64,000 nucleotides of DNA, taken from NCBI GenBank assembly GCA_965208905.1, contig OZ242365.1, positions 480,001 through 544,000 of the forward strand, written 5' to 3'. This DNA is from Nitrosopumilaceae archaeon (GTDB taxonomy: Archaea > Thermoproteota > Nitrososphaeria > Nitrososphaerales > Nitrosopumilaceae). Made by a program: the position numbers and the translations under genes. Shown here in pieces: positions 24,240 through 61,981 of this stretch. Below the pieces are notes generated by a model, which saw only the letters and a list, made by a program, of their open reading frames with translations, did no database searches and was not told the DNA's origin. How positions within the stretch are numbered: position 1 is the stretch's first letter; every line of letters begins with the position of its first letter.

Positions 24240-24930
24240 TAATCAAATAACATGTTGATTTGATATATAAGAAATATCCAACTTATAACACTCTGAAAAG
24301 TGGGTTCTGTCGCAAACGCCGTTGATGTGACATCATACACATCACCCTAAAGTTGAACTACACGTACCCTTACAGACACCACACCTTTGACTTTGGTCCA
24401 TGTTTGACGCTTTGCAGGATGTCCACCGATGACCGTACGGCTAACCATACGGTCAGTGGTGAGGCCACCCTCCACGTCCTGCTGCCCAATATCTGTGGCC
24501 GTGCCGATATAATCTGGCAATGTCTATAAACTCTTGATAAAACGTCGCGGTAGGCCGAGCTCCTTTCGACCTCGTTTTCGATATTGCGTTCCGCGTTGAT
24601 ATCTGCATGATGAATGAATCCGCATGAGATGCATCAGAATAGTCTACCACACCGACTATTCTAGTCTATATTGCAGACACAACGAACACATCTGGCTCGT
24701 GTATACCGGGTTGACACGTATCACCCCCACCCACCAACATGTATAAAGTATGGCGGCAAGCATACCCCAGCCCTGGTTCAGGATAGACTTGTTCAAGCCG
24801 CGCCTTTGCGCGACGTTTGTACCAGCCCAGTGACATCATAATACTGAATAGCAAACTCACCAATGAGTATACAGAGTTCTATAAACTATGTATATAATTC
24901 CCCCTTAAATATACAATATACGATATCATC

Positions 24931-50075: not shown

Positions 50076-50290
50076 TGTTGTTGCTTGTGCTTTGTGTGTA
50101 TTATGTTATTTGTCCTTCAAACTAATACCCACAGTCTCTAAATTCCTGTGCTTGTGGGGAGGGACCAGCAATCGTAAATATTGGGAATTATATACAAAAG
50201 TACACAACCCCAATTCTGAGAGTTAATGCCTGAACCACGGATCGCGTCCATACAACTCCCCTTAAATACTAGCATACCGTATTATATATC

Positions 50291-51642
50291 ATGATACGGG
50301 TAGTTAAGGTACCGCTACGGAGGGATGTGTTGTTTGCAGAGTGGGCGCACCGCACGAATCATGCGTCAAGATATGTGTACAACCGCGCCGTATCAGAGTA
50401 TTTGTTTGGTGGCGAATATAGGAGAGGGTGGTAGTGGACATCCTGCAGCCCTTCAAACTGCCGGGCAAGCTGGATTTTACATCAGGTATGCTGGACGATG
50501 ACTACCATACATATGATTTTGGGCCATCAAAGAATGTATTAAAGTACGGCATGTTCAAGCAGCTTACGGAGTGGCGCGCTGAACATGCATGGGTATCTGA
50601 CTTGCCTATGGTGTTTGGCAGGGGCGCCATACAAGATGCCTCTATCGCATGTAGAAGAGTTGTAGATGACAACTCCGGCCATGCGCCATACCGCCGCAAA
50701 GACGGCCGCATCATACTATACAGTGTAAATCCGCCTGTACGAAAAGGTGAGCACACCATACATATCCCCGGATATGGTATTGTAGAGACCGCCAAGCCCA
50801 TCGATGTATCGTGGGACATGCGGTCATTCAAGATAGTTGATGTCACCAAACGGGTGGACAAGCATACAAAGCCGTCAGACCACATGTTTGAGCTGCATAT
50901 TGCCGTGCGTGTACCGGTCGAGCCACACCATAATACAGGTGTAATGCGTGGCGTCGATGTGGGCGGCAAGCACCTGGCAGTTACTGTCGACACAAATGGC
51001 AATGTTACAATACACAACACCCGCCATAGAGCAATCCTGCGGGAGATTGACGCGCTAAAGAGTTTGCGCGACCGCAAGACACGGCATGGCCGGAAGTGGC
51101 ATATATTGAATGACCAAATAAAGCGGCTATACAGGAAGGCCAACAACATAGCCGCGAACACGATAAATCAGACGATTGCGCAGATAACTAGTGGTGTGGA
51201 CGCAGTCGTGGTCGAGTCGCTCTCCGTAAAGGACATGACCACACATGGTGGGAATTACAAACGCGCTATGAACCGTTCAATGCGGGAGAACCATGTTGGG
51301 GAGTTCCTGCGCAAGCTTGCGCAGTGGTGTGAGATACACAACATACCGCTGTTGGGGGCATCTGCCAAATACACGAGCCAGACGTGCCATGTGTGTGGTC
51401 ACGTAGACTCAGAGTCGCGTATATCACGCGACAAATTCATTTGCACAAATTGTACCAGGGTATTCCACGCGGATGTCAATGCCGCCTGGAATATTCTGTA
51501 TAGGGCGGCGGGGAACGTCGTCCTAAGACGGCCGGGGCACAAGGAGGGCTACAAGCCAACACCTTCTATGCTCCACTCCATACAACGAAGTCGTCAGAAA
51601 AGGCATGAGTGTACAGCCGAGGCTGTGTACTTTTGTATATAA
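50291..51642 (+). CDS. tnpB: RNA-guided endonuclease TnpB (~450 aa), 1-bp frameshift near 50420-50430
   Basis: N-terminal MIRVVKVPL...SRYVYNRAV from ATG 50291; in ORF 50428-51642 RuvC-I GVDVG, RuvC-II VVVESL, YTSQTCHVC...CTNC, RuvC-III HADVNAAWNIL. Confidence 0.9.
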
Positions 51643-51647
51643 TTCCC
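51495..51647 (+). ncRNA. Putative omegaRNA scaffold overlapping the tnpB 3' end
   Basis: Position between RuvC-III and element end, as in known TnpB loci; 9-bp hairpin with two G-U pairs at 51609-51630; boundaries inferred. Confidence 0.5.
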
Positions 51648-58539: not shown

Positions 58540-59952
58540 TCATATAAAGTGTATATCCTGATGTATGTCATGTATGGCTCGTATGGCCTTGGGCAGATTA
58601 CTCTTAAAGTCTTCAATGATGATTATTATTCTTGAGGTCTCTTCCTGCGCATCCATGTTCAATATGTTGATGCCGGCCTCTCCCACTTGGAAGGCAATCT
58701 TGGATACTACATGTTGTACACGCCACATATCATCCCCAATCAGTGTGATTGCTCCTCGATTATACACTATGGTAGCGGTGGGATCAAACTTTAACAGGTA
58801 CTCTTCGTTTCGTCTAACATAGTTACCATCGCTGAATAATATTCGGGAGAACCACATGTTGTTCTTGGTGTATGGTGAGAGTGGTACGAACTCGTTGTAC
58901 CTCTTTACCTGTTCTAGTGAGTTTTGTAGATCTAAAAATTTACTGGACCTTAATCTCAGAATCGCACAGTTTCCCAGACCTGTGACTATCTTTATTGGAT
59001 GATTGTCATCGTTGTTCACGCTTCGTTGAATTATGGTGGTGTGGGATGAGTCTTGCATGTCGGTGATTTGGAGTGGTACGTAGACGTCATTATCCAGTAT
59101 ATCTTTGATGGCCATGGTGTCTAAAATCTTCATTCCAAACATTCCAGCCATTCTAGCCTCGTTGTACGAGAGATACTTTACTTCAAGCAATCCTGACTTT
59201 ACCATTTTGGGATCTGCAGATGCCACGGCTCGGTTCTTCTCCCAGACTATGCGGACATTATAATATCTTTGAAGTAAGATTCCCATATCAGCAGCAGTCC
59301 GGTCAGTACCACCTCGTTCATAAGTACTCATCTTTCCGGTCAGCGTCTTTCCAATAAATCCACCCATACATGTCACATCATACTCTTTGATTATGTCCAA
59401 TGTAGGTTGTAGTTGTTTCTTGGACTCGGCCGCTAAAAAGTTCGTATACTCGTAGGCTTCAGATGTAATTATGGGCCACTTCTCATATGGCACAAATGAT
59501 GACTTTATATCGTTACTCTGAAGTATGTAATTCATGACACAACTCATCAATAGTTCGCCCGAATAGCCCAATGCCTGGGCACGGTTGATGTCACTAAATT
59601 TACGTTCGTTGTAAGACCTTTCAAGTGCGTCTTGACATCTGGATAGAAAGGTTTTGATGGTATCTTGACACTCTTGGCGCAGACTCTCATCGACCATGAG
59701 GGATATATCATCGTATAACTTTCGTACAGGCTCCAAGTCTGGCGGTATGCCCCGTTCTGCATTGTAGCCCACCCACATTACCACATCGGTTATAGAGCGG
59801 CTCTCTCCCCGCTCCAAGACTAGAGGGGCAGAGAAGACTGCCATTACTTTGGAGTCAACAGATAGTTGTTTTATATTTTTTATTATATTTGGTATGTACT
59901 TGCCGCCATCACCAATTGTACTACCACCGTACTTGGCTACAACCAAATCCAT
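58540..59952 (-). CDS. lysC: Aspartate kinase
   Basis: VAKYGG, GGFIG, RGGTDRTA, ADPK, C-terminal ACT; start MDLVV at 59952. Confidence 0.88.
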   Translation of the reverse strand: MDLVVAKYGGSTIGDGGKYIPNIIKNIKQLSVDSKVMAVFSAPLVLERGESRSITDVVMWVGYNAERGIPPDLEPVRKLYDDISLMVDESLRQECQDTIKTFLSRCQDALERSYNERKFSDINRAQALGYSGELLMSCVMNYILQSNDIKSSFVPYEKWPIITSEAYEYTNFLAAESKKQLQPTLDIIKEYDVTCMGGFIGKTLTGKMSTYERGGTDRTAADMGILLQRYYNVRIVWEKNRAVASADPKMVKSGLLEVKYLSYNEARMAGMFGMKILDTMAIKDILDNDVYVPLQITDMQDSSHTTIIQRSVNNDDNHPIKIVTGLGNCAILRLRSSKFLDLQNSLEQVKRYNEFVPLSPYTKNNMWFSRILFSDGNYVRRNEEYLLKFDPTATIVYNRGAITLIGDDMWRVQHVVSKIAFQVGEAGINILNMDAQEETSRIIIIIEDFKSNLPKAIRAIHDIHQDIHFI

Positions 59953-59995
59953 AATTATACCCATACAGACCATTAAATTAAATATTGGGATATAA

Positions 59996-60350
59996 GGTTC
60001 CTCCCGCAAGGACGGATACTATGTGTCACATCTCAACTATCTTTTTAAACATGTAAACCGTACTGTACGCTAATGGTACTACGCACATACACATTCGGCG
60101 TTATATTCCGTAAAGGGTTCAAGAAGGAGATGTTGGCCAGACAGGCCAGCATGGACAGGTACGTGTATAACAAACTAGTGGAAACCTTCAAGGAAGAATA
60201 TCGTAGAACAGGTAGAGTAAATGCGACGCAGGGTACCCTGAGAAACGTCAAGCACAGACCGGGGAACGAGATGCTCTATGCACCGTCGTCCTCTGGCGTG
60301 ACGTGTGATGTATTGTGGATGCGGGAACCCCCGTGCTTGCAGTAGGAACC
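59996..60350 (+). mobile_element. 355-bp internally deleted tnpB element with 20-bp TIRs and 8-bp TSD
   Basis: Left ggttcctcccgcaaggacgg vs right reverse complement ggttcctactgcaagcacgg (17/20); flanks ggatataa (59988-59995) / ggatatga (60351-60358). Confidence 0.82.
60073..60345 (+). pseudogene. tnpB: Truncated tnpB (N-terminal helix region joined to the 3' end of the element)
   Basis: MVLRTYTF...LARQA..DRYVYNKLV matches the OrfB N-terminus; no RuvC motifs. Confidence 0.7.
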
Positions 60351-61340
60351 GGATATGAGTTGGGCTGCCTTCCCAGCCCCTGATGGAGTAGTGTTATGTG
60401 GACGGGGTTGCCGTAGTTTCTCTAGTACCAAATCATGTATATTATGAATATCTGCATGCGTGTAGCCAAATTGTTCTGCATTATCTTCTTGCTCAAAGTG
60501 ACCCGATATGGGTATGAATATACCTGGCGTGCCGTATGAGGTGGCTTCATCCATTGTGGATCGGCCAGCCAGAGACACTACTACATCTGCAGCATATATC
60601 ATCTGGTGTAGATTGGTAGTTGAATCTCCCAAGATGGGACCTCCTACAAATATTGTATCGGCTACATCTGTAATATCTGCTGCAACGGGTCTCATGGCAT
60701 CCAGAAGAAACTTGCCCGCCTCTGTACCGCCCACAGTGACCAAGACCGTCTTTCTACGCATATTGTACTTTTGCCGTAGGTACTCTCTAGGGTGGTGTAT
60801 CTGCCTCACTATTGGACCCACATTGTGGATGTTTTTATGATCAGATGTAATATTTGGTGTTATTACAGCGTCGCATTCGAGTATCATATCTGTCATTTTG
60901 TGATTTAGTCTTCTCTCCACCATGCCGGATATGCCTTTTGTAAAGCGGCTCTGTAGTACGTCGGTGATCAACACTTTACATCCTGTGTACATGGCCAGCG
61001 CTGCAAAGTCTTCATCTGATACTATCATCTTGGGATTGTATCGTTTGATCAAATCCAAGGATATACGGCGACACCTATAGTGATATTTCATGTAGCGAAT
61101 AAGCCATATGGTTTTGTGCCGCAGATGACCCGATACTATATCGAATTTAGGTGGCGTATACACATCAAGAACTGTATGGCCACATTTTGATAAAAAACTG
61201 GCAGCAACACCCCCGCTTACAAATATCACATCCACATCCTTGCGCAGCTGCTCGGCTATGGCCGAATCTCTACTGGCATGTCCCAATCCTATGGGACTGG
61301 TAAAGAATAGAATGGTTGTGTTATGTTTTGTACCCGCCAT
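60276..61340 (-). CDS. GT-B glycosyltransferase (GT28/MurG-like); C-terminus extended by the insertion
   Basis: IGLGHASRD, VTVGGT, AGRSTMDEA..YGTP.IFIPI.GHFEQ. Confidence 0.88.
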   Translation of the reverse strand: MAGTKHNTTILFFTSPIGLGHASRDSAIAEQLRKDVDVIFVSGGVAASFLSKCGHTVLDVYTPPKFDIVSGHLRHKTIWLIRYMKYHYRCRRISLDLIKRYNPKMIVSDEDFAALAMYTGCKVLITDVLQSRFTKGISGMVERRLNHKMTDMILECDAVITPNITSDHKNIHNVGPIVRQIHHPREYLRQKYNMRRKTVLVTVGGTEAGKFLLDAMRPVAADITDVADTIFVGGPILGDSTTNLHQMIYAADVVVSLAGRSTMDEATSYGTPGIFIPISGHFEQEDNAEQFGYTHADIHNIHDLVLEKLRQPRPHNTTPSGAGKAAQLISGSYCKHGGSRIHNTSHVTPEDDGA

Positions 61341-61378
61341 GCACCATAGTATATAGAAGCCATATTGACTATTATACA

Positions 61379-61981
61379 ATGTTGTTCACTGGTATAATTC
61401 AAGGAATCGGAAGGGTGCAGAGCATATCGCCCAGCGACAGACGTAGTGTGTTATGTATGGACATTGATCTGGGTGGTTGCGCAGAGGGTCTAGAGCAAGG
61501 CCACAGTGTGGCCATAAATGGTGTCTGTCTAACAGTTGTGGACATCCATGATACGCGTTGTACATTTGAGATGATACAAGAGACCGTGCAGACTACAGGG
61601 TTAAGATCGTTAAAAGCTGGCGACAGCGTCAATATAGAGCGAAGCCTTCGCGTGGGCGATAAGATAGAGGGACATTTTGTGTTGGGACATGTGGATGGAA
61701 CCGGTGTAATAGATGAGATTCAAGAACGCCCCGGCGAGGTCAGTATCAAGATTCGCGTACCAGAAACACTATCAAAGTATATAGTCAAGAAAGGGTCCAT
61801 AGCAATCGACGGTACAAGTTTGACCATTACGGATATACAAGACAATATGATACAGATATCATTAATACCACATACCATGGAGGTCACAAACTTTGGTACG
61901 CGCCAAGCAGGAGACATCATCAATATAGAGACGGACATACTGGGCAAATACGTTCTAAAGGAAGATAATATACAAGTATAA
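61379..61981 (+). CDS. ribC: Riboflavin synthase (alpha-chain type)
   Basis: MLFTGII, SVAINGVCLT, GHFVLGHVDG, KGSIAIDGTSLT. Confidence 0.95.
   Translation: MLFTGIIQGIGRVQSISPSDRRSVLCMDIDLGGCAEGLEQGHSVAINGVCLTVVDIHDTRCTFEMIQETVQTTGLRSLKAGDSVNIERSLRVGDKIEGHFVLGHVDGTGVIDEIQERPGEVSIKIRVPETLSKYIVKKGSIAIDGTSLTITDIQDNMIQISLIPHTMEVTNFGTRQAGDIINIETDILGKYVLKEDNIQV

Follow-up and report, generated by a model that had tools for sequence, protein, structure and literature searches.

A probable internally deleted tnpB insertion sequence with IS6-type terminal inverted repeats in a Nitrosopumilaceae archaeon

A short element with the ends of a longer tnpB family

We analysed a stretch of 64,000 nucleotides (hereafter the window) from a Nitrosopumilaceae archaeon (assembly GCA_965208905.1, contig OZ242365.1, positions 480,001 to 544,000). 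It contains, at 59996-60350, a 355-bp element that is very probably a non-autonomous copy, shortened by an internal deletion, of a 1.5-kb insertion sequence that carries only tnpB between IS6-type terminal inverted repeats (TIRs). The initial annotation of this DNA had proposed an element of this length bounded by TIRs and a target site duplication (TSD). Re-reading the sequence gave the same result: the left and right TIRs agree at 17 of 20 positions, and the flanking 8-bp TSD copies at seven of eight. These ends are not a chance arrangement, because longer copies in the genome share them and because the flanks abut without the element in a relative. In the latter, the same-genus genome G005, the two flanks (96-98% identical) overlap by one 8-mer and the element is absent; the boundaries of the empty site are exactly those predicted. 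Two other insertions of the family are also empty in G005, with an 8-bp overlap each, and the flanks of a further copy (A1677) were not found in that genome. In the DNA run X15 the site of the remnant is occupied, and the contigs break inside the repeat.

The element begins after the left TSD copy (GGATATAA, 59988-59995; the empty site of G005 holds the single 8-mer GTATATTA) with the left TIR (59996-60015, plus strand). The promoter-like box described earlier is present as the TATA-box-like TTTTTAAA (60042-60049, plus strand), about 27 nt before the tnpB ATG at 60073. The 16-mer around it is identical in all eight full-length copies and in the remnant, and the tnpB transcript would be leaderless. 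The first 54 tnpB codons follow (60073-60235, plus strand), including the RYVYN that had been noted in a piece estimated at about 50 codons. The open reading frame extends to 60345 and encodes 90 aa, the parental frame being lost after the 54 codons. The remainder is the last 115 nt of the parent (60236-60350, plus strand), the 3' portion of a conserved structured omegaRNA-like region; the 3' piece is thus present as claimed, and its length is 115 bp rather than about 120 bp. It ends in the right TIR (60331-60350, minus strand), recognised from the sequence and from the parental copies, which is followed by the right TSD copy (GGATATGA, 60351-60358).

Two genes flank the insertion. An aspartokinase-like gene (58540-59952, minus strand; AA_kinase, 2.8e-16) has its likely ATG at 59952, 43 nt from the left end of the element. 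On the other side, the last 25 codons of a glycosyltransferase gene (60276-61379, minus strand) are now derived from the element, and two to three more lie within the TSD copy. In the empty allele of G005 the glycosyltransferase stops a few codons past the insertion point (read by eye).

The parents of the remnant and the deletion

Searching with the remnant recovered its parents in the same genome, as had been anticipated: they are 1.5-kb elements that carry tnpB only. The family includes eight plain full-length copies of this size, one interrupted copy of 2,565 bp, and the 355-bp remnant. The remnant has 22 matches in its own genome, of which one is itself, eight cover positions 1-240/226 at 88-90% identity, and ten cover positions 241-355 at 85-97%. 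All ten copies of the family have the 20-nt TIR in common. Their TSDs are perfect (8/8) in four copies, match at 7/8 positions in three, and are absent in the other three.

When read in register against the full copies, the remnant consists of two parental pieces, nucleotides 1-240 and the last 115 nt, with a blunt join between them. The junction lies at 60235/60236, shows no microhomology, and corresponds to about 1,160 bp of missing parental sequence. The shared parental ends, this junction, and the empty site all agree with the earlier proposal of an internally deleted tnpB element. The palindrome CAGGGTACCCTG (60229-60240) had been regarded as an inherited feature of the 3' end, which the comparison contradicts: parental positions ~234-240 supplied its left half and a site 115 nt from the right end supplied the other, two distant places that the deletion brought together. 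Because it straddles the junction (60235|60236), we class it as a by-product of that event. No second match spanning the junction was found in the genome itself or in 40 relatives. The remnant resembles MITEs, which are small non-coding elements with TIRs and a TSD, in its 355 bp and its imperfect TIRs and TSD, and as a single copy it lacks MITE-style amplification. A deletion copy of another tnpB family keeps a similar right end, of 123 nt.

Judged by its sequence, the protein of the parents is a genuine TnpB. The 464-aa product of the parent has three Pfam domains, all above the cut-offs: Cas12f1-like_TNB (6.8e-15, 55.4 bits), OrfB_IS605 (3.2e-8, 34.2 bits), and HTH_OrfB_IS605 (1e-5, 25.3 bits). 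It aligns with the solved structures of ISDra2 TnpB over residues 4-402 (E 1.3e-12), and the D/E/D catalytic and zinc-finger motifs are found in all six full-length open reading frames of the family. The 90-aa reading frame of the remnant matches HTH_OrfB_IS605 with E 4.2e-4 and 20.2 bits, just below the 21-bit cut-off. The assignment of its N-terminal peptide to TnpB is supported by the DNA, which is 90% identical over 240 nt to parents with TnpB domains.

Terminal repeats and transposase partners

The IS6-type character of the ends can be traced to elements that encode a transposase. In the same-genus genome G009, a 1,453-bp element (L067) with an 8/8 TSD contains an intact 388-aa DDE_Tnp_IS240 transposase (PF13610, 30.4 bits for a cut-off of 27), and its left TIR matches that of the remnant at 19 of 20 positions. 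TSDs of 8/8 were found at seven of the 11 loci of autonomous IS6-type relatives that we examined. In the genome of the remnant itself, only one element combines cognate TIRs with a transposase (C1:926302-927837). It is frameshifted, with stops in every frame, and three reading-frame fragments of the broken gene gave no match in Pfam. The other IS240-type genes of the genome are 22-27% identical. Thirteen strong IS240-type genes were considered as partners and rejected, since searches for exact 12-mer TIRs and for repeats gave no convincing TIRs in their vicinity. We propose that an IS6-family DDE transposase acting in trans inserted the remnant, a staggered 8-bp cut giving rise to the TSD. As the sole cognate copy of the transposase is frameshifted, the remnant is now probably immobile in its genome.

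The window contains another tnpB element (50183-51647, plus strand), with a TIR of the IS1595 type (GGGAATTATATAC...) and the TSD TAAATATT. Its TIRs are also found on elements with an IS1595-type transposase and, as the initial annotation had stated, they are unrelated to those of the remnant. The further suggestion that the link is systematic is supported too, tnpB being associated with at least two unrelated TIR families, one IS6-type and one IS1595-type. The genome has 77 matches to the TnpB domain, of which 74 were taken into a scan for TIRs and TSDs, three being left out because they scored below the cut-off. This crude scan identified a TIR pair with a TSD of at least 7/8 around 29 of the 74 matches and resolves no ends for the other 45.

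A one-sided motif next to the target site duplication

The target DNA outside the element has a TAM-like ATTG (59984-59987, plus strand) directly 5' of the left TSD copy, and this motif is kept in the empty allele of G005. It recurs within the family. In the family of the remnant (family 1), TT is found at positions -3/-2 in all nine usable left flanks, and in one of seven on the mirrored downstream side, for a genome-wide TT frequency of 0.068. Family 3 has TA in 10 of 11 upstream flanks (11 of 11 when one 9-bp TSD is allowed), and in family 2, 12 of 14 upstream flanks carry G at -1, with no downstream signal although the TIRs of this family are perfectly symmetrical. The TIRs of families 1 and 3 agree over their outer 14 nt, but the flanks differ at position -1 (G versus A). 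These flanks provide a new lead: almost all of the surviving insertions have a TnpB-family-specific motif (NTTG, WTA, ATNG) directly 5' of the TSD, at the position that a TAM must occupy.

One possible reading, to which we give slightly less than even odds, is that TnpB has moved wholesale onto DDE transposons in this archaeal lineage, on elements with IS6- and IS1595-type ends and a variable TSD of 8-9 bp. The position of the motif is what one would expect if it were the TAM, if the right TSD copy provided the first 8 nt of the guide, and if TnpB cut the precisely emptied site. The part assigned to the right TSD copy (GGATATGA in the remnant) follows an analogy with IS605 omegaRNAs, in which case the guide would be read through the right end of the element. 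Under such a model, insertions would persist or be driven through the population only where they had happened to land at a distance of 8 bp downstream from a TAM. The remnant occupies a site flanked in this way and could still supply its own guide.

Alternatively, the motif might show which targets the DDE transposase prefers, in which case it would not be a TAM and TnpB would have no site-specific relation to the insertions. The autonomous IS6-type elements of G009 and G004 lend some weight to this explanation, because they have TT at -3/-2 in three of seven upstream and two of seven downstream flanks (counted by eye), which exceeds the genome frequency. ATAG occurs in one of four autonomous IS1595-type elements, as it does in the tnpB family sharing that TIR, and the TSDs of both kinds of element are AT-rich. 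However, the motif is strictly one-sided in the tnpB elements, in family 2 in spite of its symmetrical TIRs, families 1 and 3 differ at -1 in spite of their shared outer TIR sequence, and the motif lies exactly where the homing model requires a TAM. We therefore find an explanation by transposase preference rather unlikely.

Is the remnant a relic or a guide carrier?

The remnant is most likely a decaying relic. The alignment of the family reveals a conserved 3' structure of five helices with 38 pairs, four of which show a compensatory change; the share of paired alignment cells is 96.4%, compared with 41-50% after sliding the partners. The remnant keeps helix 5 (18 pairs, about 60245-60311) and the terminal hairpin (about 60320-60335). 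The other helices are lost or halved: 2 and 3 are gone, and 1 and 4 are represented by their 3' strand only. Folding 60236-60370 as a single sequence gave a result no better than shuffles (z -0.15), so the evidence for the structure comes from the alignment. Rfam returned no family at E ≤ 1 for the remnant and one parent. The 3' half of the ISDra2 omegaRNA reportedly suffices.

The RNA data are assembled library contigs, from which strand, ends, and level are not readable, and one of the three RNA runs covers the remnant. In that run (X2) a single 228-nt contig extends over 60118-60346, junction included, with seven mismatches and three gaps; it ends 4 nt short of the right end of the remnant, and no contig covers the adjacent glycosyltransferase gene. 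In the two others, X1 and X3, contigs fall on the aspartokinase gene and none on the remnant. Given that the TATA-like box of the family is kept, transcription probably starts at 60073 and runs past the right end of the remnant into the adjoining DNA. The product would contain helix 5 together with the terminal hairpin and, behind them, the right TSD copy with flanking sequence. TnpB from any of the six intact parents could in principle load it and would then cleave the element's own empty site, i.e., ATTG followed by the 8-mer and the flank.

Some observations fit a relic less well. Helix 5 has no disruptive change, and the differences from the nearest parent (111/115 identical) fall in a variable loop, which could be a sign of constraint. 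The deletion copy of the other tnpB family has retained its right end as well, and the X2 contig crosses the junction while the glycosyltransferase gene is uncovered. That the remnant works as a guide in trans is a minor possibility, though one to be taken seriously. In its full form, this alternative is unlikely. The remnant would be a maintained stand-alone guide carrier: trimming of its transcript would yield a short omegaRNA, which the TnpB of a full-length copy would take up in trans, and the resulting cut of the empty allele (ATTG, GGATATGA, and flank) would restore or spread the insertion by recombination. Such a role is consistent with the undamaged state of the promoter box, helix 5, terminal hairpin, and right TIR, with ATTG at the TAM position, with six parents having full reading frames and catalytic motifs, with the contig that crosses the junction, and with published reports of trans-acting stand-alone omegaRNAs (PMC10691335). 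It is harder to reconcile with the loss or halving of helices 1-4, with a single copy, with a contig that shows neither RNA end nor strand and differs by seven letters and three gaps, and with the unexceptional single-sequence fold and the lack of an Rfam family. We retain the decaying relic as the preferred interpretation.

Comparison with known systems

Classically, tnpB is a gene of IS200/IS605. The idea that the family belongs there (in the IS1341 group) and is moved by a Y1 TnpA, its TIRs and TSDs being incidental, has the Pfam names of the TnpB domains in its favour but is refuted by TIRs in all ten copies, 8-bp TSDs in seven of them, three empty sites with an exact 8-bp duplication each, and a search for Y1_Tnp (PF01797) that gave 0 matches in this 99.57%-complete genome and was positive in six of 14 control genomes. 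Like the elements of the IS1341 group, those studied here have a single tnpB of about 400-460 aa and a structured RNA that overlaps its 3' end and reaches the right end. IS200/IS605 elements are described as having neither TIRs nor TSD and as dependent on Y1 TnpA (PMC13565253), whereas our family has both and Y1 TnpA was not found.

The presence of TnpB within DDE-type inverted-repeat elements has already been published (Altae-Tran et al. 2023, PMC10691335). The DDE-associated and solo TnpBs described there resemble ours in the position of tnpB inside inverted terminal repeats and in the distance of no more than 250 bp between the 3' end of tnpB and the end of the element. For the solo TnpBs, as here, the ends are almost the same as in elements that carry a transposase, which points to mobilisation in trans. 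The transposase partners named in these sources include IS630 (PMC10691335) and ISL2, IS630, and IS1031 (PMC13565253); the ends found here are of IS6 and IS1595 type, in a Nitrosopumilaceae-like archaeon. Our literature search found no paper linking TnpB with the IS1595 or IS6 family, although the supplement of PMC10691335 may list such links, and none joining TnpB with Nitrosopumil-. The relevant passages of PMC10691335 make no mention of a TAM-like motif that adjoins an 8-bp TSD of variable sequence, a feature of our families.

In a recent review, the TnpB-DDE association has been called rare and hard to rationalise, because the known role of TnpB is to restore IS605 and IS607 elements that were excised scarlessly (PMC13565253). 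The remnant itself is ordinary; the family to which it belongs is a clear-cut natural example of TnpB on target-duplicating DDE transposons in archaea. The one-sided motif next to the TSD leads to a testable model for TnpB homing with a variable duplication, and the motifs provide three compact archaeal TnpB families with candidate TAMs.

Deletions that spare the ends are known from other elements: ISHwa23, of 1,500 bp, was reduced to a PATE of 52 bp (PMC3119063). In stand-alone omegaRNAs and core-deleted remnants of this kind, as in our element, the ends are spared and the 3' RNA-coding end may stay. In contrast to such core-deleted remnants, ours keeps its TIRs and TSD with only part of the RNA structure; it occurs once, and nothing suggests that it was mobilised as a mini-element. 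Finally, Fanzors (the TnpBs of eukaryotes) in DDE transposons with TIRs are, like TnpB here, RNA-guided nucleases carried as passengers, with a TAM near the 5' TSD (PMC13565253). According to the same source, Fanzor1 has a fixed TSD that belongs to its TAM, and a 3' TSD located within the scaffold. Here, by contrast, the TSD varies, the motif precedes it, and the guide would start with the 3' TSD copy.

Origin of the remnant element

The 355-bp element at 59996–60350 has 20-nt ends that form inverted repeats agreeing at 17/20 positions, direct 8-bp flanks that agree at seven positions (GGATATAA and GGATATGA), and a promoter-like box (TTTTTAAA, 60042–60049), as described in the initial annotation. 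It carries an ORF of 90 aa starting at the ATG at 60073. Searching the 2.21-Mb genome of the same archaeon with this sequence returned 22 matches: the remnant itself, 8 at its left end (first 240 or 226 nt; 88–90% identity), 10 at its right end (last 115 nt; 85–97% identity), 2 weaker left-end matches, and a marginal one. The left- and right-end matches pair into 8 full-length, tnpB-bearing copies of 1,513–1,519 bp, which are the parents that such a search had been proposed to recover, and one interrupted copy of 2,565 bp. Hence, the remnant consists of parental nucleotides 1–240 and the last 115, and lacks about 1,160 bp. With the copies read in register, the deletion junction (60235|60236) is blunt and devoid of microhomology. 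The palindrome CAGGGTACCCTG, previously regarded as part of the 3' end, instead arises where the two sides of the junction meet. The frame of the remnant ORF departs from that of the parent beyond codon 54, and the ORF scores 20.2 bits against HTH_OrfB_IS605 (cut-off 21 bits). In summary, the remnant derives by deletion from a tnpB passenger of IS6-type ends and is present in a single copy.

The ORF of one parent copy (L002, 464 aa) matches Cas12f1-like_TNB (6.8e-15), OrfB_IS605 (3.2e-8), and HTH_OrfB_IS605 (1e-5), all above the Pfam cut-offs, and residues 4–402 of the parent protein align with the solved ISDra2 TnpB (E 1.3e-12). The ORF is uninterrupted (464–479 aa) in 6 of the 8 full-length copies and broken in the others (239 aa and 58 aa). 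None of the six intact ORFs has lost the RuvC D, E, or D position or the CxxC...CxxC finger. In a record titled as a Rhodothermales bacterium MAG (L090–L096), a TnpB sharing 31% identity with the archaeal protein across residues 17–416 occurs at least 5 times.

Other remnants of tnpB are found in this genome. Three are likewise deletion derivatives of tnpB elements: one of 585 bp (C1:999540-1000124; left 172 and right 432 nt, TSD 8/8), one of 641 bp (C1:2089312-2089952; left 526 and right 123 nt), and a chimera of 789 bp (C1:1047821-1048609) joining transposase remnants to a tnpB 3' end. Right-end pieces of similar length, 115 and 123 nt, occur in two unrelated tnpB families. In the window, two overlapping TNB matches on the minus strand at 24580–24754, with stops (two TGA and one TAG; one TAG), look like a decayed tnpB remnant.

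Insertion sites and empty alleles

All 10 copies of the remnant's family share two TIR variants. Their 8-bp flanks agree fully in 4 copies, at 7/8 positions in 3 (including the remnant), and do not match in 3. One of the latter has a second element 8 bp away, and the direct repeat TTAAACTC encloses the pair. This 3,058-bp pair (L024, C1:924780-927837, outside the window) consists of a full-length tnpB copy and a frameshifted IS6-type transposase element placed head to head, with the 8-bp repeat outside, as if moved as a single unit by the outer TIRs.

As anticipated, a relative has the empty site. In G005, a genome of the same genus, the remnant's flanks (98% and 96% identity) meet at a single 8-mer, lacking the element and agreeing with its boundaries; the site reads ...ATTG GTATATTA GTTGGG.... 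The sites of two other copies of the family, E28 and G441, are also empty there, each with an 8-bp overlap. These empty sites indicate that the boundaries and the duplication are real products of transposition. No flanks of a fourth copy were found in G005. All three testable sites were thus empty, with flanks 94–98% identical, and copies within the genome differ from each other by 5–12.6% (87.4–95.0% identical). This divergence may reflect either an already-diverse source pool or elements evolving faster than their mostly coding flanks. The insertion separates by 355 bp the glycosyltransferase and aspartokinase genes, close neighbours in the empty allele. The former (minus strand, 60276–60358) lost its final few codons to the insertion and now ends 25 codons within the element.

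Two types of probable transposase partners

We found no match to the Y1 transposase family of IS200/IS605 in the genome (99.57% complete), and 77 stretches matching the TnpB TNB domain, 74 of them above the cut-off. A crude scan of these 74 loci found a TIR pair with a TSD of at least 7/8 at 29. The remnant's TIR type is also on one 1,536-bp element (C1:926302-927837) with a zinc-finger/HTH/DDE reading frame that has stops in every frame. Intact relatives of this frame occur in other genomes of the genus. In G009, a 388-aa ORF matches DDE_Tnp_IS240 (30.4 bits, cut-off 27); the 1,453-bp element around it agrees with the remnant at 19/20 positions of the left TIR and has a TSD of 8/8. The TSD is 8/8 at 7 of the 11 examined loci of IS6-type transposase elements. 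Hence, the remnant's family is a non-autonomous passenger of IS6-type ends, and the cognate transposase is broken in this genome. A third tnpB family (about 1,616 bp, encoding a 523-aa TNB-positive protein) has IS6-type TIRs at both ends. Another IS of 1,247 bp looks currently active, with 14 copies 99.7–100% identical (e.g., C1:1377383-1378629) and a 373-aa frame weakly matching DDE_Tnp_IS240 (E 0.0046).

The other tnpB element of the window (50183–51647) is a member of a roughly 1,466-bp family whose TIR, GGGAATTATATAC..., is also on four elements encoding an IS1595-type transposase (one of which was scored on Pfam: DDE_Tnp_IS1595, 2.9e-40). The proposed link of tnpB to two TIR families in one genome therefore holds, with IS6-type and IS1595-type ends. 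Two of these four elements carry a DNA methylase-HNH passenger, confirmed by Pfam in one. They (L038, C1:1770047-1772736, and L039, C1:1043578-1046414) have perfect or near-perfect 30-nt TIRs and 8-bp TSDs, and the passenger is an N6/N4 DNA methylase fused with an HNH nuclease domain, split in two ORFs in L038.

A one-sided motif next to the duplication

We oriented the flanks by tnpB before comparing families. Upstream of the left TSD copy, the remnant's family has TT at −3/−2 in all nine usable flanks (TTG in 6, TTA in 2, TTT in 1; one TTA site is ATTG in the G005 empty allele), and the mirrored downstream side has it in 1/7. Given a genome-wide TT frequency of 0.068, the binomial p is 3e-11. 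The 1,616-bp family has TA at −2/−1 in 10/11 flanks (11/11 allowing one 9-bp TSD) and, by eye, in 1/8 on the mirrored side. The IS1595-type family, whose TIRs are symmetrical, has G at −1 in 12/14 and A at −4 and T at −3 in 10/14 each, with no signal on the mirrored side. Inspection by eye of relatives gave TTG, TTC, TTG, and TTG in the G001/G006 subfamilies (9-bp TSD in 3/4), TTA three times in G005, and TCA twice in G009. The motif precedes insertion, being present in the three empty alleles. Among autonomous elements, in small controls, it is weaker and two-sided: for IS6-type, TT occurs in 3/7 flanks upstream and in 2/7 on the mirrored side; for IS1595-type, G at −1 occurs in 2/4 and 1/4, respectively.

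We infer that this geometry would be the one needed by the IS605 homing model, with a TSD added. If the element were lost precisely together with one TSD copy, the remaining site would consist of motif, 8-mer, and right flank; a transcript extending past the right end would have the same 8-mer and right flank as its guide. This pattern of a putative TAM beside a TSD is a lead worth testing.

The 3' RNA region and its possible expression

An alignment of the final 215 nt was built from 17 copies (9 in this genome; 8 in G001, G005, G006, and G009). In these relatives, identity to the query over the whole element drops to 65–69%, far below the conservation of this region. The aligned sequences form a fold of five helices, 38 pairs in all: 96.4% of the cells are paired, versus 41–50% when partners are slid by 1–3 columns, and 4 pairs have changes on both sides, a number reached by 1/500 shuffles. 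A short hairpin just within the right TIR differs in letters between subfamilies and is kept in each (by eye). Since TnpB homology stops about 230 nt short of the right end, the overlap of the RNA region with the ORF is confined to the non-homologous tail, as is usual for omegaRNAs of IS605 TnpB. Rfam has no family matching the remnant or a parent (E ≤ 1).

The 3' piece of the remnant starts within the 3' strand of helix 4. It retains the whole of helix 5 (18 pairs), the terminal hairpin, and the 3' strands of helices 1 and 4, and has lost helices 2 and 3. It is identical to its nearest parent at 111/115 positions, and the 4 differences fall in the variable loop. The single-sequence fold is uninformative (z −0.15). 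In the assembled contigs of three public RNA libraries (X1–X3), the aspartokinase gene is present in all and the glycosyltransferase gene in none. One 228-nt contig of X2 covers 60118–60346 across the deletion junction, with 7 differing letters and 3 gaps, and gives no strand, ends, or locus; it weakly hints that some copy of this deleted type is transcribed somewhere in that community. A role as a guide carrier, as suggested for the remnant, is possible.

Comparison with known systems

Among the papers retrieved by our search, none was found to tie TnpB to IS6-type or IS1595-type ends, or to Nitrosopumilaceae. A passage of a 2026 review (PMC13565253) names ISL2, IS630, and IS1031 as DDE partners of TnpB and calls the association rare. 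Passages of Altae-Tran et al. 2023 (PMC10691335) describe six branches of TnpB associated with DDE transposases, each having inverted terminal repeats, as well as solo TnpBs, mobilised in trans, that have near-identical ends, and stand-alone omegaRNAs active in trans.
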